DNA from: a virus
Strand: one strand, 5' to 3'
DNA: 5,726 bases
IMG/VR virus record: IMGVR_UViG_3300029570_000099
Span: 1-5,726 of that record
The position numbers and the translations under genes are program-made. The notes under the pieces are model-generated. The model was not told the origin of the DNA. It worked only from the letters and a program-made list of their open reading frames with translations, and did no database searches. Positions 1 through 5,726 of this stretch are shown here, in pieces; position 1 is the first letter of the stretch, and each line of letters starts with the position of its first letter.

Positions 1-91
1 TGTTATTTACTCTCCTTTTTTACAGCCGGATGCCACCGCGCATAGGTTTCTGGCTGAGGTTGATACTTTTGGTTTTTCTTGCGGTTACGTT
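1..91. repeat. Terminal direct repeat, copy 1. It is identical to 5636..5726 and is the overlap produced when a circular genome is linearised.
   Basis: Base-by-base comparison shows 1..91 (tgttatttactctcc...gcggttacgtt) equals 5636..5726 exactly. That gives a circular unit of 5635 nt. The repeat cuts through the small basic ORF and through the SD and start codon of the VP5-like ORF, which fits an assembly artefact and not a biological LTR/ITR. Confidence 0.95.
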
Positions 92-121
92 AAACATGCG
101 GCGGTCTTTTGCGCCGCTCAT
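20..121 (-). CDS. Small highly basic protein of 33 aa, a candidate DNA-binding/packaging peptide of the microvirus J / gokushovirus VP8 type
   Basis: Hand translation of the minus strand from ATG 121..119 to TAA 22..20 gives MSGAKDRRMFNVTARKTKSINLSQKPMRGGIRL. It is too short for the supplied ORF track. It is rich in K/R and ends in P-M-R-G-G-I-R-L, which resembles the RGGxR[LF] C-terminus I recall for gokushovirus small basic ORF8 proteins such as SpV4 and Chlamydia phages. The ATG lies 4 nt after the stop of the 74-aa ORF (TAAAACAATG) with no SD of its own, so translation is probably coupled. An alternative start is ATG 97..95, giving 25 aa. Its stop overlaps the SD of the next gene. Confidence 0.55.
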   Translation of the reverse strand: MSGAKDRRMFNVTARKTKSINLSQKPMRGGIRL

Positions 122-125
122 TGTT

Positions 126-350
126 TTACGATGTCGTGCCATTGTTATACTCCCTTCGTATTAGCTCTAATTCAATGGCATTTACAAAGCTTTTCATCTG
201 CCAAATTTCATCTACCAGTTTTTTTGCATCTTCAATGTTTGACACTTTTTTAAGTATTTTGTAATTGCCATCGATTTCTTTGTATTTTCGTATGAGCAGT
301 TCTTCCAGTGCCTCTTTGGTCTGGTCTCTTACGTTCCATGTTTTCTGCAC
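126..350 (-). CDS. Hypothetical protein, 74 aa, predicted helical and charged, with a GTG start
   Basis: ORF track 126..350. The start codon is GTG (plus-strand cac at 348..350). It is preceded by AAAAGGAG (GGAG at 363..360) with a 9-nt spacer, and this SD lies in the last codons of the upstream 40-aa ORF. There is no TM segment, no signal peptide and no family motif that I recognise. Confidence 0.5.
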   Translation of the reverse strand: MQKTWNVRDQTKEALEELLIRKYKEIDGNYKILKKVSNIEDAKKLVDEIWQMKSFVNAIELELIRREYNNGTTS

Positions 351-356
351 TATGGT

Positions 357-479
357 TTACTCCTTTTCTTTTTCGTTGATGCTATCATGCAGCGCATGAT
401 AGATCTCGTCTAGCTTTTCCAAAATCTGCATCATAAGACGGATTGCCTGCTTGACGTCCTTAATGGAAATAAGTGCCAT
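357..479 (-). CDS. Hypothetical small protein, 40 aa (MALISIKDVKQAIRLMMQILEKLDEIYHALHDSINEKEKE)
   Basis: This is the internal Met of track ORF 357..572. ATG 479..477 is preceded by GAAAGGGGGTATAAC, an SD with a good spacer. It lies 1 nt after the peptidase stop (TAAC-ATG), so coupling is tight. The longer 71-aa version starting at 572 has no SD and would overlap the peptidase out of frame. The protein looks like an amphipathic helix with no TM segment. Confidence 0.45.
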   Translation of the reverse strand: MALISIKDVKQAIRLMMQILEKLDEIYHALHDSINEKEKE

Positions 480-480
480 G

Positions 481-873
481 TTATACCCCCTTTCTGTACT
501 TTTTAGTGCGTGTGTCGATGTGTACCCAAGTACTGTAAACGATAATGCCGCATTCATCCGGTATGATTGCATTCAGCTTTTTGGCAATTTCTTTTGCGGT
601 CATACCATTGACCCGTATGTCTGCTGCCATTCCTCGCATGTGGTATGAGTACTTTGCACCGCCTACTGCTTTATTCCTTGTCGGTGTCCGGTATCCACTG
701 TTGATGTATACCGGCTTACCGACTTGGTTTCTTAAGATGTCTAGGATAGATACTAGGTGGTCATCTATAAAAACTACTTGTGAGCCATCTTTACAAGCAA
801 ATTCTCGCACTTTGAAGTGCTGTCCTATTTTTTCGTTTGCGTCTGTGTCCATGATATAACATTTGATTGCCAT
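481..873 (-). CDS. Zn-dependent peptidoglycan peptidase of the M15 superfamily (Peptidase_M15_3 / YcbK-DUF882-like), a putative endolysin of 130 aa
   Basis: The translation contains SGYRTPTRNKAVGGAKYSYHMRGMAADI and WVHIDTR. These match the SGYR...N...GG...S-x-H-x-x-G-x-A-x-D and x-V-H-x-D zinc-ligand/catalytic pattern of M15A-type cell-wall peptidases. I prefer ATG 873..871 as the start because it is preceded by AAAGAGAGGTGAATAAC, an SD with a 6-nt spacer. The track start at 882 is a GTG lying inside that SD. There is no N-terminal signal or TM segment. Confidence 0.85.
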   Translation of the reverse strand: MAIKCYIMDTDANEKIGQHFKVREFACKDGSQVVFIDDHLVSILDILRNQVGKPVYINSGYRTPTRNKAVGGAKYSYHMRGMAADIRVNGMTAKEIAKKLNAIIPDECGIIVYSTWVHIDTRTKKYRKGV

Positions 874-895
874 GTTATTCACCTCTCTTTATCGT

Positions 896-924
896 ATTTT
901 ACCATTTTTTTAATCGCCTGTCAA
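896..924 (-). promoter_or_regulatory. Near-consensus sigma70/sigmaA-type promoter directly upstream of the peptidase operon
   Basis: The minus strand reads TTGACA (919..924), a 17-nt spacer ggcgattaaaaaaatgg, then TAAAAT (896..901). The spacer ends in TGg, which gives an extended -10 TGn. The predicted transcription start is about 15-20 nt upstream of ATG 873, leaving a short leader that holds the GAGAGGTG SD. Confidence 0.55.
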
Positions 925-1017
925 TTGTTTTTTGGTTTGAATGGCGCTTTAGCGCCTTGCCGTGTGGAGCGTATGCGGAACGCGGCTAAATCCTTTCCTT
1001 TTTAGCGCTGTGCGCGT

Positions 1018-1191
1018 TTTCAACAGTTTCAACAGTTTCAACAGGTTTTCAACAAAATATTGCACAATGATTTCCGTCATTTTGACGAACTTTCAACATT
1101 TCAACAAATTTTCAACAAATCTTTCAACACTGTTTTTTGCTTTTTATTTACGTTTTAACGTTAAATTTTAGTACTTATCAACTTTTCAACA
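1018..1191. repeat. Array of nine direct, same-orientation copies of TTTCAACA (TGTTGAAA on the coding strand), iteron-like
   Basis: Exact TTTCAACA 8-mers start at 1018, 1027, 1036, 1047, 1091, 1099, 1110, 1122 and 1184. The first three are spaced exactly 9 bp apart (cagtttcaa tandem). There are two clusters of four plus one outlier. An AT-rich stretch at 1131..1180 includes the 10-bp palindrome ttaacgttaa (1155..1164). Confidence 0.9.
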
Positions 1192-1223
1192 TTGCCTACT
1201 ACTACTCCTACAACAAGTTATAT

Positions 1224-1253
1224 ATTATACGGCGCTTGTGAGCTTGCGAACAA
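1224..1253 (-). promoter_or_regulatory. Candidate weak promoter with a perfect -10 and a poor -35
   Basis: The minus strand has TATAAT at 1229..1224 and TTGTTC (3/6 match to TTGACA) at 1253..1248, separated by an 18-nt spacer. The spacer overlaps the ggcgc...gcgcc hairpin at 1231..1260. A transcript from here would run through the TTTCAACA array toward the peptidase operon. Confidence 0.3.
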
Positions 1254-1268
1254 TAGCGCCTAAAGAGC

Positions 1269-1311
1269 CGCGCGTGCGCGCGTGTGCGTTTCGCGCGCGT
1301 GCGCACGCGCG
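1269..1311. repeat. GC-rich inverted repeat (hairpin or cruciform) made of two 20-nt perfectly alternating pyrimidine-purine tracts
   Basis: Arm 1 is cgcgcgtgcgcgcgtgtgcg (1269..1288), followed by ttt, then arm 2 cgcgcgcgtgcgcacgcgcg (1292..1311). The arms pair over 20 positions: 17 Watson-Crick pairs plus 3 G.T pairs on the plus strand, which become A.C mismatches on the minus strand. The outer 11 bp are perfect. Both arms are strict (YR)10 and therefore Z-DNA-prone. By eye the GC content is far above the rest of the genome. Confidence 0.85.
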
Positions 1312-1330
1312 ATAAAGTATAGCTATTTGA

Positions 1331-1347
1331 TAGACTGAATAGACTGA
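1331..1347. repeat. Short tandem repeat, tagactga-a-tagactga
   Basis: TAGACTGA occurs at 1331..1338 and 1340..1347 (9-bp period), immediately after TTGATAG-type sequence (atttgatagactga). Confidence 0.7.
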
Positions 1348-1364
1348 TACATGGAGTCTTTAGA

Positions 1365-1403
1365 TGACAAAAGCCCAGTATCTTACTTGATAGGTACTGG
1401 GCT
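1365..1403 (-). terminator. Perfect 9-bp hairpin downstream of VP4, a possible intrinsic terminator and/or origin hairpin
   Basis: The stem is agcccagta (1372..1380) paired with tactgggct (1395..1403), with a 14-nt loop tcttacttgatagg. On the coding strand it reads AGCCCAGTA-loop-TACTGGGCTTTTGTCATC and begins 19 nt after the VP4 stop. The T-run is short (4 T, one of them in the stem) and the loop is large, so terminator strength is uncertain. Confidence 0.4.
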
Positions 1404-1422
1404 AGGTGACACCATGACACTG

Positions 1423-2442
1423 TTAAAGTGTCCCTCTCTTTTTCATCTGCTTCTTTATCACTCTCTCTTTCGTTTTGCATTGTTCTGCAAAGTTTGCATT
1501 TTCGTACTTTAGCCGGTTTTCTGCTATGGCCGCTGCTTGTCTGTTCTGTTTAATTCTCCACAATCTTTGTGGGTTTTCCGCTTCCATCATTTTTTCATAA
1601 TAACGTGGAATTTGTGCGCGTTTGCCGTTTGTGCATTGGATATACCCTTGTTTCCAGATCTCTGCTTTGTGTTCTTGATAGTAGTGATCTCCTAGACCTG
1701 GTTTAAGGCTCATACATGCAAAAGGTTTTTGTTGCCCTAGTTCATAGTATACGTTTGCTTTCTGTCCGTCAATTTCGTACATCTTTTTTGTAACGTATCC
1801 TGCAACATATCTATATGTTTCCGGTACTGCTTGTGCTATCTGTATTTGACCCATGCCCCATAGGTCTGTTAGCCATTTACTTGTGAAATATCCGTTGTGT
1901 TGTATCTTGTATAGGTGATCTAGGTCTGTTGGTCTCCATCCATATAGAATCATATGGTAATGTGGTCTTGCCGTTTGTTCTCCGTATTCTCCTGCTACGA
2001 AATAGCGTAATTTGCCTCCATAAGCCTTCCTGAGGCGTTTTAAGAACTTTTGAATGTCAGTATATAGCAACGTTTGGACGCTTTCAGGGCGCTTCTCTCC
2101 CGGTTTCCAGACGTATTGTACTTTTCGCATGATTTCGCCTGTGTTTACTATCATGCCCGGTACATGATCATCGTCATAAGTTAATGTGATAAACCAAACT
2201 TCTTCTCTTGGATAGTCTCGTGCTTCTAATTCTATACGTGTTGTCCAGTCCTCTCTCTGTCTTATTCTACATCCGATGCACTGCCCGCACGGTATTAACA
2301 TGACATCTTTTCTATACATCAGATCTTCATATTTTAGCTGCTTTCCCGATATTTCAGAAAAGCGGGCAAGTGAATACACCCGCCCGCTTATGTCTTTGTT
2401 TTCCGGGTTGTACAGCCTTATTAATGGCTTGTAACAACTCAC
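1423..2442 (-). CDS. VP4: Replication initiation protein, an HUH rolling-circle endonuclease (Microviridae VP4 / protein A family)
   Basis: The 339-aa ORF has FITLTY (motif I), RPHYHMILYG (the HUH motif, with HYH encoded at 1954..1962) and YRYVAGYVTKK (the tyrosine motif). It also has the N-terminal CYKP and the CGQCIGC cysteine cluster typical of gokushovirus VP4. The start is GTG 2442..2440, overlapping the VP2 stop as GTGA, with AGGTGA 9 nt upstream. Confidence 0.93.
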   Translation of the reverse strand: MSCYKPLIRLYNPENKDISGRVYSLARFSEISGKQLKYEDLMYRKDVMLIPCGQCIGCRIRQREDWTTRIELEARDYPREEVWFITLTYDDDHVPGMIVNTGEIMRKVQYVWKPGEKRPESVQTLLYTDIQKFLKRLRKAYGGKLRYFVAGEYGEQTARPHYHMILYGWRPTDLDHLYKIQHNGYFTSKWLTDLWGMGQIQIAQAVPETYRYVAGYVTKKMYEIDGQKANVYYELGQQKPFACMSLKPGLGDHYYQEHKAEIWKQGYIQCTNGKRAQIPRYYEKMMEAENPQRLWRIKQNRQAAAIAENRLKYENANFAEQCKTKERVIKKQMKKRGTL

Positions 2443-3308
2443 CTTAAATAATCACCTGCTTTTCTTTTTTCTCCGTAGGATCCAGTTTTGTCTTGTGGTG
2501 CTTGATAGCCGCTTTTATAGCCGCTTTTTCTGTCGCTCTTTTTTGGTACGTTTTTGTCGATAGCTTTGCTTGTGTCTTCTCCGATTTCTGTTAAGGCCTT
2601 TTGCAGTCCGTAAGGCGTCATTTGTGTAGAACTGAGCATCTGCTGCCAGCTTTGCGCTGCATTGTACCAGTCGCTTTTACTCCAACTGTTGCTTTCGTAT
2701 GCGTTAGGTACAAATCCTCCGCTTCGGCTTACTCCTAGTGCACTGCTGCTTGCAAGTCCCATACTTGCTCCACTGATTGTTCCTGCACTTCCTCCCGGTG
2801 TGCTTGCGCCGCCGTTTGCGAATGCTAAGATAGGGTTAAGCCCTGCTTTTTTCATGTCCTCAACGGCTCGCTGGTACGCTGTGTTTGACATGTGCTCTTG
2901 CCAGTTCCTGTTTGCTAGTGCTTCTGCGCTGTTGTAGTTCATTGCTACACTGTTTTCGATGTGGTTGTATACGCCTTGCATGATTGCTTGTAGCGTGTTA
3001 TAGCCCATCTGTTTTAACATACTCTGACTGTTGTATTTGCCTTGCATGGCTGCTTCTTGTCCTTGGTATGCGTATGCCTGTTTTAGCCAGTCATTGACTT
3101 GCTGTACGTTGGTGCCTGATTGACTTCCGCTTTCGGAGTGTCCGCCGCCTTGGCTTGTGCTGCCGCCGCTACTTTGGCTATTGCCTGTCTGCCCCCATCC
3201 GCCAAACGCTCCGGCTACGTTTTTAGCTGCTCCTGCAAAAGTTCCGATTGTGTTTGCTACGTTTCCCGCTACGTTTAGTGCTGTTAAGAGTCCAGATAAT
3301 CCACTCAT
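2439..3308 (-). CDS. VP2: Minor capsid / DNA pilot protein (Microviridae VP2, H-like)
   Basis: The 289-aa ORF has the hallmark block NRNWQEHMSNTAYQRAVEDMKKAGLNPILA, a Gly/Ser/Gln-rich low-complexity N-terminal half, and sits immediately after VP1. ATG 3308..3306 is the first possible start because an in-frame TAA lies directly upstream. Confidence 0.88.
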   Translation of the reverse strand: MSGLSGLLTALNVAGNVANTIGTFAGAAKNVAGAFGGWGQTGNSQSSGGSTSQGGGHSESGSQSGTNVQQVNDWLKQAYAYQGQEAAMQGKYNSQSMLKQMGYNTLQAIMQGVYNHIENSVAMNYNSAEALANRNWQEHMSNTAYQRAVEDMKKAGLNPILAFANGGASTPGGSAGTISGASMGLASSSALGVSRSGGFVPNAYESNSWSKSDWYNAAQSWQQMLSSTQMTPYGLQKALTEIGEDTSKAIDKNVPKKSDRKSGYKSGYQAPQDKTGSYGEKRKAGDYLR

Positions 3309-3336
3309 TTAAAAATAGCCCGGGTTTTGCCCGGGC
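3309..3336 (-). terminator. Intrinsic-terminator-like hairpin plus T-tract in the VP1-VP2 spacer
   Basis: The coding strand reads GCCCGGG-CAAAA-CCCGGGC-TATTTTTAA. The stem is 7 bp, all G/C (3318..3324 paired with 3330..3336), with a 5-nt loop, followed by TATTTTT. It lies between the VP1 stop (3348) and the VP2 ATG (3308). Confidence 0.55.
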
Positions 3337-3347
3337 ATCCTCCTTTC

Positions 3348-5009
3348 TTACAGTTTGTACAAGCCCGGTACGCTGTATAGTGGCATCCGTCTTGTGGTTT
3401 TGTTCGCTATGCGGATAGCGCCGAAAAATTGCGGCTCATTCTGCACGACGAGTGTGCGCGCAATTTCGGTCTTGCCTTCTTCCATCCAGTCTTGTGACAG
3501 TGTTGGTACGGTTGAATAATTGTCTGCGTAGTGCCAGAAATCCAACGTGCCTGTTGCGTTGCTTCGCATGAGGCCGCTTACCCGGTTTGGTTTCATTCGG
3601 TAGTCCGCCCAGGCCTCTTGATAGCCGAACGTTTCTTCGTCCGTTGCCGTGCCGGTCAACATGATCTCCTTTTTCTTTACAGGCTGCTCTCCCAGGTTTG
3701 CAAACTGTGGTACATAATAGTCAAGCCTGTCGCTTCTGCTCCAGAAACGTTCCAAGCCTTGCTGGTAACTGCGATTGTGTCGCACACAACAGACACCAAT
3801 TACAAACCCATGCTCTTCAAAAGATTTGGTAAAAGAGCTTTCGCTTACCGGCGTCACTGACATTGCACCAGTTTCGCCCAGCGGTAACTTATCGTTTGCC
3901 GCTGTCTGTACGATTTGGTTGATATTGACGTGATATCTGCCGCCGCCAAGGTATTCCGGCACCTGTACGGTTTTATCGCTGATAACTACGTTCCACAGTG
4001 CCTGTACCTGTTCACGGTAACGGCTGCCGCCTCGTGCGAGCGCTTCGTAGTACTGCTGTACTGCTACGGCTTTTCTTAAGTCGTTGATGGTTGCTGCGGT
4101 TACACTGCTAAGGTCTGCACCTAAGTATCCGCTCTTTTGAGTAGTGCCTTGGGATGTTGATGCGCCTACAACATGTGCAGCTTTTGGGTCGCTTACTGTT
4201 CCTACTTCATTGTATATTTCTGGTGCTCCTGAGCCTGTACCGTTCAAGTAAATGCTATTGCTTGGTGTCATCTTTTTTTTCAGGTCGGTGCTGTCGAATA
4301 GGTTTACTGCTGCGTTGCCTGCCATCGGCAGTGTTACTGCTGGCCCGCGCTGAGGATAAGGTAGACAGCTTGTGAAGTAGTCATGGAATTTGTTTACAGG
4401 CAACAGGTTTCCGCCTTTGTACGCGTTGTTTTCTGCTTCTTGCACCCAATCTTCTTTTCCAAATTCGTAGTCTACGTTTGCATCGTCTGTTTTTAATACT
4501 GCTGTGTTATCTACGTTTTCATCTCTGAAAAATTCGTTCCAGATTTTGACGTATGCTCTTATGGGCAGCGCGTTAATGCTAAATTCTTTTTTAATTTTGG
4601 TCGGTACTCCCATATAGTCCAGTATGGACCTTTCGTTTGGTTTTGGTGCTGCGTCCGTTCCTTTGATTTTGATTTGCGGCACTGCGTAATCTTTGCTTGG
4701 CATCCATGGCGTTGCCTCTACTTCTCCCATGAAGTGTTTGAAGTTGTCCCACAGAATTCTGTTAGGACAATAGAAGTAGTAGAAGTCAATGAATGCATCG
4801 TCCATCACTGGATACTTCGGTGTGCTCATTCGGATGATTGCTGCCGTGTCTACGTTGAAGGTATCGCCCGGTAATACTTCGTCAACATAGAATGGAATCA
4901 GCTTGCCGGAATCGAACGTTGTTAAAATTGTCTGATCACGGTTAAACCGCGTTCGACTTGCTTTCATTTCTGGAATCTGATTAAAGTGTCTTTCGTTGTT
5001 TCGATTCAC
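3348..5009 (-). CDS. VP1: Major capsid protein (Microviridae VP1 / F family)
   Basis: The 553-aa ORF has an N-terminus, HFNQIPEMKASRTRFNRDQTILTTFDSGKLIPFYVDEVLPGDTF...FYCPNRILWDNFKHFMGE, that matches the conserved gokushovirus VP1 opening. The size is typical. The start is GTG 5009..5007, preceded by GCAAAGGAGGAAGAAAA (AAGGAGG with a 7-nt spacer), and it overlaps the VP3 stop as GTGA. Confidence 0.95.
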   Translation of the reverse strand: MNRNNERHFNQIPEMKASRTRFNRDQTILTTFDSGKLIPFYVDEVLPGDTFNVDTAAIIRMSTPKYPVMDDAFIDFYYFYCPNRILWDNFKHFMGEVEATPWMPSKDYAVPQIKIKGTDAAPKPNERSILDYMGVPTKIKKEFSINALPIRAYVKIWNEFFRDENVDNTAVLKTDDANVDYEFGKEDWVQEAENNAYKGGNLLPVNKFHDYFTSCLPYPQRGPAVTLPMAGNAAVNLFDSTDLKKKMTPSNSIYLNGTGSGAPEIYNEVGTVSDPKAAHVVGASTSQGTTQKSGYLGADLSSVTAATINDLRKAVAVQQYYEALARGGSRYREQVQALWNVVISDKTVQVPEYLGGGRYHVNINQIVQTAANDKLPLGETGAMSVTPVSESSFTKSFEEHGFVIGVCCVRHNRSYQQGLERFWSRSDRLDYYVPQFANLGEQPVKKKEIMLTGTATDEETFGYQEAWADYRMKPNRVSGLMRSNATGTLDFWHYADNYSTVPTLSQDWMEEGKTEIARTLVVQNEPQFFGAIRIANKTTRRMPLYSVPGLYKL

Positions 5010-5404
5010 TTTTCTTCCTCCTTTGCTTCCGGTTCTGTTTTTGTTTCTGCTGCTGCCATTTTTTGCAGTTCTTCAAGTTTCATGGCGTTTGCCTGTGCGG
5101 TCGCTACCATTCGATGATACTCGTGAATGTTCTGCGGAAATTCCGTAATATCCGTGTATGTATCGTTTAATGCTCCCTCCGACAGATTTTTCAGAAACTG
5201 CGGGTCAAAACTTGCTTTTCGGACGATGCTTTTGATGTCGCATTCGTCAGAATAGCTTTCAATTTCCTGTTGGATGTCGATTGGTGCAGTTTCTTGCAGT
5301 ACTTCTTGCCCTTTTTCGTCCTTCGTCCAAACGTATTGTTTTTGCTCTTTTTCTCCCGGGTTAGAAAAGAAGGGCTTTCGCCCTTCTTCGTATCGTTTAT
5401 TCAT
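5006..5404 (-). CDS. VP3: Internal scaffolding protein (gokushovirus VP3-like), 132 aa
   Basis: I chose the internal Met of track ORF 5006..5524. ATG 5404..5402 is preceded by GGGAGGG with an 8-nt spacer and overlaps the upstream ORF stop (ATGAATAA). The track start at 5524 has GAAGG directly abutting the ATG and would overlap the VP5-like ORF by 120 nt. The sequence has DECDIKSIVRK and a later EYHRMVATAQ block resembling the conserved DECDINxI...Y(H/E)EA...AQ pattern of VP3, an acidic C-terminus, and a position directly upstream of VP1. Confidence 0.7.
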   Translation of the reverse strand: MNKRYEEGRKPFFSNPGEKEQKQYVWTKDEKGQEVLQETAPIDIQQEIESYSDECDIKSIVRKASFDPQFLKNLSEGALNDTYTDITEFPQNIHEYHRMVATAQANAMKLEELQKMAAAETKTEPEAKEEEK

Positions 5405-5636
5405 GCGGCTTGCCCTCCCATACCTTTTCCTTTTCGTTGGCAAACTCACCGTTTTCGTCGTCAAACTCTGCCAACTTAAAGCCGGTGTAGTCACCAGGTG
5501 CCTGCCCGACAAACGTTTTTTCATCCTTCGCCATTACGTTGCACATACGTGCAAAGGTTGCGTTGTTCTTGCTCTCGCCTACCCATGCATAGCACTTTGC
5601 TACATTGTCCCACAGGCCAAAATATTCATGCTTCAT
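5397..5636 (-). CDS. VP5: Small non-structural protein, gokushovirus VP5-like, 79 aa
   Basis: ATG 5636..5634 is preceded, across the circular junction, by AAAAAGGAGAGTAAATAAC, a strong SD. The sequence pattern is MKHEYFGLWDNVAKCY...NNATFARMC...APGDYTGFKLAEFDDENGEF. It resembles the ...D.vA..y......N.a.a.R.F...P.Dy.L..lG.fDd.tG.. pattern I recall for VP5/ORF5 proteins. The position upstream of VP3-VP1 fits. Confidence 0.6.
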   Translation of the reverse strand: MKHEYFGLWDNVAKCYAWVGESKNNATFARMCNVMAKDEKTFVGQAPGDYTGFKLAEFDDENGEFANEKEKVWEGKPHE

Positions 5637-5726
5637 GTTATTTACTCTCCTTTTTTACAGCCGGATGCCACCGCGCATAGGTTTCTGGCTGAGGTTGATA
5701 CTTTTGGTTTTTCTTGCGGTTACGTT
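5636..5726. repeat. Terminal direct repeat, copy 2 (identical to 1..91)
   Basis: See copy 1. This copy also holds a truncated duplicate of the 3' part of the 33-aa basic ORF (5655..5726), which should not be counted as a separate gene. Confidence 0.95.

Follow-up and report, generated by a model that had tools for sequence, protein, structure and literature searches.

An oriC-like module with putative host-type DnaA boxes in an intergenic region of gut gokushoviruses

We analyzed IMG/VR virus record IMGVR_UViG_3300029570_000099 (positions 1 to 5,726; hereafter the window), with attention to an array of short direct repeats, TTTCAACA, and to the larger module of which this array forms a part. 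The window represents a circular genome of 5635 nt, given with a terminal redundancy of 91 nt (positions 1-91 are identical to 5636-5726). All of its genes are located on the minus strand and include a VP5-like gene, the VP3 scaffold, the VP1 capsid, VP2, the VP4 replication protein (Rep; 2442..1423, minus strand; PF23343, E 1e-17), an M15 peptidase (882..481, minus strand) and three small open reading frames. We assigned the genome to the Gokushovirinae, for which an F-type VP1, VP2, a Chlamydia-phage-type VP3 scaffold, VP4 Rep and VP5 on a circle of ~4.5-6 kb are characteristic: it is circular, it matches PF02305 (E 2e-138), PF09675, PF23343 and PF20577, and its nearest records are gut gokushoviruses. 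The array is housed in a non-coding gap of 540 nt (883-1422), between the VP4 stop codon and the start of the M15 peptidase gene. A first-pass annotation, made by a model from the sequence, had likened these repeats to an iteron-style origin. Our analysis places them within an oriC-like module of ~213 nt (1017..1229, plus strand, opposite to the genes), in which putative DnaA boxes are followed by DnaA-trios and then by an AT tract.

The repeat occurs nine times, always on the plus strand (at 1018, 1027, 1036, 1047, 1091, 1099, 1110, 1122 and 1184). Only 0.29 copies are expected in the window, and nine copies were reached in 0 of 200 dinucleotide-preserving shuffles. No further exact copy is present in the window, where one-mismatch sites occur only at 3012 and 4920; the number, common orientation, spacings and confinement of the repeats to 1018-1191 were therefore as the first-pass annotation had reported. 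Eight of the copies form two putative DnaA-box clusters. Cluster 1 (1018..1054, plus strand) consists of four copies with spacings of 9, 9 and 11, and across 129 unique modules its conservation is ~0.9-1.0 within the boxes and lower between them. Cluster 2 (1091..1129, plus strand) consists of four copies with spacings of 8, 11 and 12. The interval between the clusters (1055..1090), 44 nt from box start to box start, retains its length in most relatives and contains a palindrome, GTCATTTTGAC (1076-1086), whose letters vary among relatives while the palindrome itself is kept (GTCATAATGAC in the relative L061). Cluster 2 is followed by an AT-rich block (1130..1174; conservation ~0.5-0.9 per position) that includes the palindrome ttaacgttaa (1155-1164). 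GC content over 1100-1199 is 0.25, consistent with the AT-rich stretch that had been noted between cluster 2 and the last copy.

This last copy had been regarded as an outlier, and is in fact the inner box of a compact unit. The plus strand from 1175 to 1229 reads TTATCAACT TTTCAACA TTGC CTA CTA CTA CTC CTA CAA CAA G TTATATATTATA. The upstream box of this unit, TTATCAACT (1175..1183, plus strand), is a tenth, degenerate box directly 5' of the ninth TTTCAACA copy; it reads TTWTCAACT in nearly all relatives, and its variable site corresponds to the W position of the DnaA-box consensus TTWTNCACA. The trio-proximal box is the ninth copy itself (1184..1191, plus strand), and in most of the 70 unit-bearing close genomes this position is occupied by TTTCCACA/T, the canonical DnaA core. 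A 4-bp gap follows (TTGC, 1192..1195), with a length that is constant in nearly all relatives and letters that vary (ttgc, acct, gcct, gtct). The putative DnaA-trios (1196..1210) read CTA CTA CTA CTC CTA on the top strand, such that the trio strand, 3'-GAT-5', is the minus strand of the window; conservation reaches at least 0.9 for trios 1-3 and 5, and the fourth trio varies. CTACTACTA is present once in the window against 0.01 expected. Beyond the trios lie a phage-specific tail, CAACAAGTTA (1211..1220, plus strand), which is at least 0.9 conserved in the 129 unique modules and kept in the most diverged carriers, and a short AT tract, TTATATATTATA (1218..1229), which by its position after the trios resembles the AT-rich element of oriC and is presumed to be the first melting site. 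Within the AT tract GTTAWTATWATA is conserved; the tract (GTTATATATTATA) that follows the trios and the CAACAAG tail measures ~12 nt and has GC-rich DNA on either side.

The order of these parts is that of the basal unwinding system (BUS) of bacterial chromosome origins, in which a DnaA box and a second box abutting it are separated by a ~4-bp gap from three or more DnaA-trios (3'-GAT-5', read as CTA on the strand of the boxes), with an AT-rich region beyond them (PMC6669920, PMC8287927). The BUS was described by Richardson 2016/2019 and Pelliciari 2021, with B. subtilis incC providing DnaA boxes #6/#7, trios and an AT-rich region (PMC6669920, PMC8287927); a clostridial version is present in C. 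difficile oriC2 (PMC7561715), and CACCTACTACTATTACTACTATGA is a C. difficile example of trios. The supplementary table of Pelliciari et al. 2021 gives the lower strand 3' to 5', and its rows were converted to the top strand for comparison. In this form, B. subtilis reads TTATCCACA AATCCACA GGCC CTACTATTACTTCTACTA, C. botulinum reads TTATTAACA TATCAACA AGCC (CTA)6, and C. difficile R20291 reads TTATTAACA TTATCAACA ACAC CTACTACTATTA..., a CTACTACTA run (PMC8287927). The proximal box of the phage adjoins the upstream box as a 9-mer followed by an 8-mer, like the B. subtilis and C. botulinum rows. In DoriC, the R. albus 7 row reads TTTTCAACA GGT TTTTCAACA, and both TTATCAACA and TTTTCAACA are listed as species-specific standard boxes for some taxa.

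We also compared the phage unit with each rule of the search program of Pelliciari et al. 2021. The program allows a box up to 2 mismatches to TTATCCACA, and a second tandem box up to 4; TTATCAACT (1175-1183) has 2, and TTTTCAACA (1183-1191) has 2, or 1 against the relaxed TTWTNCACA, with TTTTCCACA/T at this latter position in most relatives. From box to first trio the program accepts 0-16 bp, with a mode of 12-13 bp that represents the second box plus a gap of ~4 bp. In the phage, the 8-mer box and TTGC together amount to 12 bp, which agrees with the Bacillus, Listeria, Staphylococcus and Clostridium rows, and the published Firmicute spacer is 12-13 bp with a gap region averaging 4 bp (PMC8287927). 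At least 3 consecutive 3'-NAN-5' trios (preferably 3'-GAT-5') are looked for, on a strand and in an orientation set by the box; at 1196-1210 we find three perfect GAT trios, one degenerate and one perfect, all five of which fit NAN, and their orientation relative to the boxes agrees with the published table. The unit thus conforms to the box, spacer and trio rules of the program. It does not lie in a chromosomal oriC, however, but in a 5635-nt circular microvirus genome without dnaA, and we therefore class it as an element that would work like a BUS and not as a chromosomal origin.

In addition to the order, orientation and spacing of its parts (9-mer plus abutting 8-mer box, 4-bp gap, 12-bp spacer, CTA-type trios, and a tract that is a candidate for the AT-rich region), the phage element shares with the BUS additional boxes in the same orientation upstream. 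The top strand at the trios also supplies TnnT motifs, the DnaD element that is recognised by DnaD in B. subtilis (PMC10201434). It differs in that it resides on a 5.6-kb single-stranded DNA (ssDNA) phage and not between dnaA and dnaN, in that all of its boxes point one way and none is opposed, and in its short AT tract, its degenerate fourth trio and its additional tail, CAACAAGTTA. Because the final pair of boxes, together with the gap and the CTA run, matches the DnaA-box/trio unwinding unit published for Firmicute oriC, the repeats do not appear to be Rep iterons in the sense of plasmids or of circular Rep-encoding single-stranded (CRESS) DNA viruses.

We gathered VP4 relatives from IMG/VR and GenBank, and also scanned viral contigs for the unit. 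Among 81 close genomes, 70 carry TTWTCAACT, TTTC[C/A]AC[A/T], 4 nt, CTA CTA CTA Cnn CTA CAA CAA and GTTAWTATWATA, with a geometry that is constant in nearly all of them; the remaining 11 are mostly incomplete loci (e.g., L078, which represents one and the same contig as L243, where the unit is present). In most of 72 genomes, first box to end of trios spans 205 nt and the box spacings follow the pattern 9-9-11-44-8-11-12; 214-nt length variants contain one additional 9-nt unit. Across the 129 unique modules, the most diverged of which is 56% identical to the window, conservation is 0.94 at positions within boxes and 0.68 at positions between them. Repeat number and phase are maintained across relatives. 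The two variable sites of the proximal boxes are the W of TTWTNCACA and a C/A site (CAACA/CCACA), the latter also varying in host origins. The viral-contig scan identified the unit in at least 84 microvirus contigs that fall into several discrete clades, most with 5-9 boxes upstream and with VP4 proteins 29-96% identical to that of the window. In six diverged GenBank genomes (VP4 39-84% identical to the window), boxes and unit are unchanged. Altogether, the module is conserved in more than 100 gut gokushoviruses, with ~43 homologous examples in GenBank, and the region is unannotated in every deposited genome examined.

The module is also mobile within these genomes. In 6 of the 70 close relatives (L007, L038, L052, L053, L059 and L061) the segment equivalent to ~1017-1229 is inverted in place, with sharp edges (TTTTCAACAG...CAAGTTATATAWTA). 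In MG945867 the module lies after VP4 on the coding strand, and in KT264784 it lies between VP2 and VP4. These arrangements indicate that the module behaves as a self-contained cassette of duplex DNA, independent of orientation and position. Survival through inversion and relocation argues for a function in duplex DNA and excludes an RNA leader, a coding sequence or a promoter-proximal operator.

Trio runs are lacking in the classical, cultured gokushoviruses phiMH2K, Chp2 and SpV4, and box clustering in them does not exceed the level of shuffled sequence. The module is therefore not a general gokushovirus feature, and appears to be an acquisition of the gut clade. VP5 is also annotated in phiMH2K and Chp2, both of which lack the module, and for this reason it was rejected as a dedicated repeat-binding protein; the small open reading frames of the window match only VP5-like and J-like families, or nothing, and so offer no other phage-encoded candidate. 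Relatives with VP4 and no array, which would have counted against a conserved role, did not yield a clean case. The contig L011 (8.8 kb; region 5117-7600) has a 96% identical VP4 and, like most relatives, a conserved hairpin next to it (see below), and ~100 nt past VP4 it passes into unrelated DNA with large opposite-strand open reading frames; it is probably an assembly chimera or a recombinant, and was not accepted as a deletion variant. MG945219 is a partial record that is broken in the module region.

To search for the repeat in bacterial genomes, 185,579 species genomes were scanned for three TTTCAACA copies 0-4 nt apart, yielding at least 120 loci. Among the matches listed, ~46 of 120 loci belong to Oscillospiraceae, Ruminococcaceae, Ruminococcus or unclassified Clostridia/Eubacteriales, including R. 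albus KH2T6 (hand count of titles). Ten of the 120 listed loci lie beside dnaA/dnaN, and 9 of those 10 are from the Oscillospiraceae/Ruminococcaceae/Ruminococcus/Clostridia group; Pfam searches identified DnaA on the upstream side and DnaN on the downstream side of L102, L140 and L168; in L092 they identified DnaA. Eight dnaA-dnaN spacers together contain 89 copies of TTTCAACA, which in every one of them ranks first among 8-mers or shares first place. These copies mostly point to the trios, are mixed with canonical TTTCCACA and are 8-12 bp apart, as in the phage. The host arrays end in TTTTCAACAgTTTCAACA cccc CTACTACTACTACTA (also TTTTCAACAgTTTCAACAcccc(CTA)5), followed by AT-rich DNA. The presence of 10-20 copies in some spacers, their location and the terminal unit were not pre-selected by the three-copy scan.

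The Oscillospiraceae and Ruminococcus spacers (L087, L092, L102, L140 and L168) thus share with the phage module both box types, their spacing, and a terminal unit of box(es), 4 nt, (CTA)n and AT-rich DNA. They differ in that the host arrays are longer (10-20 boxes), some of their boxes are opposed, the gap is CCCC and there are five perfect trios; moreover, the phage tail CAACAAGTTA is absent 3' of the trios in the host oriC loci examined. Bacterial loci that were in reality mis-binned phage do not account for the likeness, as VP1 or VP4 was found in 0 of the 120. A recent capture of a host oriC was likewise rejected, as BLAST comparison of the module with the 120 loci shows nothing beyond the motifs; we accordingly claim likeness in kind, and not descent from a host origin. 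The box word appears to point to gut bacteria of the Oscillospiraceae/Ruminococcus type as the host, with which a Firmicute-type promoter (TTGACA-17-TGnTAAAAT) and the M15 lysin agree.

The same scan also returned loci from other lineages. Metagenome-assembled genomes (MAGs) of Thermotogota (L112, L153, L188 and L146; Mesoaciditoga/Athalassotoga) have 10-11 TTTCAACA copies, some with CTA trio runs, and dnaA was not detected nearby. An archaeal MAG (Nitrosopumilus, L143, 895-1142) contains a regular tandem array of 21 TTTCAACA copies.

A second conserved element of the gap lies just past the VP4 stop codon and outside the module. This is a hairpin (1372..1403, minus strand) with an 8-nt loop, ATCAAGTA, and a predicted ssDNA fold of -8.3 kcal/mol (z = -3.4). 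Of 170 genomes, 124 have the hairpin, in every case on the coding strand, and the loop (CT)ATCAAGTA(AG) is constant while the stems are lineage-specific and compensatory. From these features we infer that it may be the nick site for VP4 rolling-circle replication, and more than a plain terminator. In addition, an exact tandem direct repeat of 9 nt, ATAGACTGA (two copies, 1330-1347; TCAGTCTAT twice on the coding strand), lies ~25 nt from the hairpin and is partly conserved in relatives. This repeat is better placed than the TTTCAACA array as a candidate Rep-binding repeat. A separate, strand-fixed hairpin with a conserved loop would provide a home for Rep apart from the DnaA-type module, and the distance between module and hairpin is not conserved among relatives.

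Together, these observations suggest a relationship between the gokushovirus module and the start of chromosome replication in the host. We consider it likely, given the unit and its counterparts in dnaA-dnaN spacers, that the TTTCAACA repeats are DnaA boxes of the host type and are bound by DnaA. The fuller statement, that 1017-1229 is a copy in kind of the unwinding half of a Firmicute chromosome origin, seems probable, if with less assurance. Whether the module would fire as an origin or merely capture DnaA is, from its sequence, an evenly balanced question. If it does fire, the setting would be the double-stranded replicative form. Host DnaA-ATP would fill both four-box clusters and the tandem proximal boxes TTATCAACT and TTTCAACA; from the proximal boxes DnaA would polymerise onto the trio strand (3'-GAT-5', window minus strand) and open the adjacent AT tract. 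The freed opposite strand would offer its TnnT motifs to DnaD, and DnaD, DnaB and DnaI would then load the host replicative helicase. The outcome would be a host-initiated (theta-type) start that amplifies or maintains the phage duplex, separate from VP4 rolling-circle synthesis, which would probably begin at the conserved hairpin by the VP4 gene. Extended to the clade, this leads to a more tentative proposal, which we regard as possible and somewhat short of even: that a large group of uncultured gut gokushoviruses are dual-origin replicons, with a rolling-circle origin for an HUH Rep and a functional host-type oriC unwinding module, and that their duplex may be a DnaA-dependent minichromosome.

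Several points weigh against this interpretation. Its support comes from sequence comparison. The bacterial loci were chosen for the motif, and the enrichment on the host side is therefore partly circular; BLAST of the phage module against the 120 loci gives motif-driven matches only, with no extended homology. The repeat TTTCAACA differs from the E. coli consensus at the normally conserved C6, and its identity as a DnaA box in Oscillospirales is itself deduced from where and in what context it occurs. Compared with chromosomal unwinding elements, the AT tract that follows the trios is short (~12 nt), and the strongly conserved phage tail CAACAAGTTA is not explained by DnaA. Finally, as the cultured gokushoviruses illustrate, the module is not needed for microvirus replication in general, and no clean module-less natural variant, by which dispensability might be judged, was found among the relatives.

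Microviridae replication is, in textbook accounts, started by the phage's own nickase, and we know of no role described for DnaA in it. Extrachromosomal replicons that recruit host DnaA via boxes near an AT-rich region include P1 oriR, F, pSC101, RK2 and R6K. The phage module resembles these in having putative DnaA boxes near AT-rich DNA on such a replicon. In those replicons, however, the boxes are accessory to an iteron-binding initiator of their own and no trio unit is known to be described, whereas in the phage the array is made up of the boxes themselves and the initiator that the phage encodes is an HUH nickase. A further comparison is with the iterons of CRESS-DNA viruses, geminiviruses and plasmids with HUH Reps, small Rep-encoding replicons in which short direct repeats likewise lie near the replication origin. 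These iterons adjoin the stem-loop of the nick site and co-vary with Rep, while the phage repeats match host DnaA boxes, show no co-variation with Rep and belong to a movable cassette apart from the candidate stem-loop. The closest phage precedent found is that of T5-like phages, in which eight paired DnaA boxes lie in the injection-stop region and for which the authors argue against a replication role (bioRxiv 10.1101/866236). There, too, approximately eight DnaA boxes, including TTATCAACA variants, are phage-borne, conserved and precisely arranged; the T5 boxes differ in being paired inside inverted repeats on a large double-stranded DNA phage, with no trios described. Our full-text literature searches found no work linking Microviridae or gokushoviruses with iterons, DnaA boxes or DnaA-trios, in agreement with the first-pass annotation, which knew of no iteron origin described for the family, and a preprint on FLiP contained nothing on DnaA function.

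Among other explanations, the module could be a DnaA sink or sensor that neither fires as an origin nor loads a helicase, titrating DnaA from the chromosome (in the manner of the datA locus, with an effect scaled up by the number of replicative-form copies) or tying phage gene expression to the DnaA-ATP level, with the lysis/peptidase promoter ~90 nt beyond cluster 1 as a conceivable target. With approximately ten boxes in each genome and a duplex present in multiple copies, the sink would be substantial; the AT tract is short, the module in the orientation of the window adjoins the only strong promoter of the gap, and the eight paired boxes of T5-like phages, TTATCAACA variants included, have been argued to be non-replicative (bioRxiv 10.1101/866236). 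A sink or operator would need neither trios nor a fixed 4-bp gap nor an AT tract, yet these are the most conserved parts, and retention of the module when inverted or moved away from the peptidase promoter argues against promoter-proximal regulation; we therefore view this explanation as rather unlikely. It is less likely still, in our estimation, that DnaA acts as a melting helper, opening the trio/AT region so that VP4, an HUH endonuclease needing ssDNA, could nick at the tail, CAACAAG/TTATAT. This tail loosely resembles the phiX174 origin, CAACTTG/ATATTAATAAC. Its conservation is 0.9 or higher in all lineages, host origins do not have it, it is on the strand that DnaA would leave free, and it shares CAAGT[T/A]A with the conserved loop of the VP4-side hairpin. 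The tail strand is non-coding in 64 of 70 close relatives and coding in 6, however, and sister lineages would then package opposite strands; the strand-fixed hairpin with its conserved loop is a simpler candidate for the nick site, and its distance from the module varies.

Some HUH Reps are known to bind short direct repeats, and the repeats could in principle be true iterons of VP4, as in CRESS-DNA viruses, geminiviruses or plasmid pMV158, with a coincidental likeness to DnaA boxes. They are indeed short, direct, near an AT-rich block and, in most genomes, near the Rep gene, and the origin-like character that the first-pass annotation saw in them, direct repeats beside an AT-rich unwinding region, stands. 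Its assignment of the repeats to Rep does not, since the repeat is constant across VP4 proteins as little as 29% and as much as 96% identical to that of the window, being kept as TTTCAACA/TTTCCACA in genomes at 29-58%, and also builds the oriC arrays of Oscillospiraceae and Ruminococcus. Iterons normally co-vary with the specificity of their Rep, and a repeat that stays identical while VP4 diverges does not track Rep as iterons do. Both the exchange of CAACA for CCACA and the box-gap-trio unit are characteristic of DnaA, the module is found in either orientation and at two positions in the genome whereas the candidate stem-loop is fixed on the coding strand, and the ATAGACTGA pair (1330-1347) beside that stem-loop would make a better Rep site. 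We regard iterons as very improbable on these grounds, and place even less weight on an operator array that a different host regulator (Spo0A, for example) would bind, on an element of an RNA leader or on a short coding sequence. The 0A box, TGNCGAA, is one base away from the phage TGTTGAA, and 0A boxes overlap DnaA boxes in the B. subtilis origin; given this resemblance between the two boxes, the earlier suggestion of a Spo0A operator was a near miss, closer to our reading in that it looked to a host factor. The phage motif nonetheless lacks the CG core of the 0A box, and Spo0A would leave the trio unit unexplained. An RNA leader, also proposed earlier, is contradicted by the inverted and relocated modules, in which a strand-specific role would be destroyed, and the module strand shows no excess of single-strand structure over shuffled controls (z = -0.04) and only sub-threshold noise in an Rfam search, which also led us to reject a structured RNA or ssDNA element. 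As for a coding sequence, a few GenBank records place 'hypothetical protein' features over the region, but 64 of 72 genomes lack an open frame across the array, any product would be scrambled by inversion, and the conserved small protein that the first-pass annotation had named as a refutation was not seen.

The phages concerned dominate the ssDNA viromes of human and animal guts. If the proposed reading is correct, they would recruit the chromosome-initiation machinery of the host, with a mechanism for duplex amplification or long-term episomal persistence; dual origins could allow a plasmid-like carrier state that is tied to the host cell cycle and competes with the host origin for DnaA. The TTTCAACA box dialect would then also serve as a host tag that can be read from sequence for phages without a cultured host, giving this clade a testable assignment to Oscillospiraceae/Ruminococcus. 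The unit of ~55 bp would offer a compact natural substrate for DnaA unwinding assays in anaerobic Firmicutes. It would also mean that an unwinding unit can work as a portable cassette outside chromosomes, and units in larger viral contigs suggest that such cassettes may be widespread.

These larger IMG/VR contigs (10-160 kb) contain textbook units, e.g., TTATCCACA TTATCCACA GCCC CTACTACTA, with up to eight consensus boxes upstream (L324, L337, L378, L342, L336, L390, L354 and L377; L238, 3262-3822; L314, 7824-8384). No dnaA or dnaN was found in the fetched loci of these contigs. Portable DnaA-box/trio modules could be frequent among other phages or phage-plasmids; alternatively, some host origin DNA may be present in these contigs. 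Canonical TTATCCACA units were not identified in further microvirus clades; the only microvirus among the matches listed, L386, has a single box in an ordinary hairpin.

Other features of the gap lie outside the module and are given as context. The sole strong promoter, of the sigma-70/SigA type (896..924, minus strand; TTGACA, 17 nt, TGgTAAAAT; 11 of 12 matches including the extended -10 TG), belongs to the M15 peptidase gene. This gene is also preceded by a strong ribosome-binding site, GAGAGGTG, which, like the promoter, is typical of Firmicutes. Between the module and the ATAGACTGA repeat there is a GC-rich imperfect palindrome of alternating CGCG/TGCG (1261-1311) in a genome of otherwise 45% GC, with a predicted ssDNA fold of -21 kcal/mol and a z of only -1.6. 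This palindrome may be a complementary-strand origin or a recombination site, and it is kept in the relatives with an inverted module.

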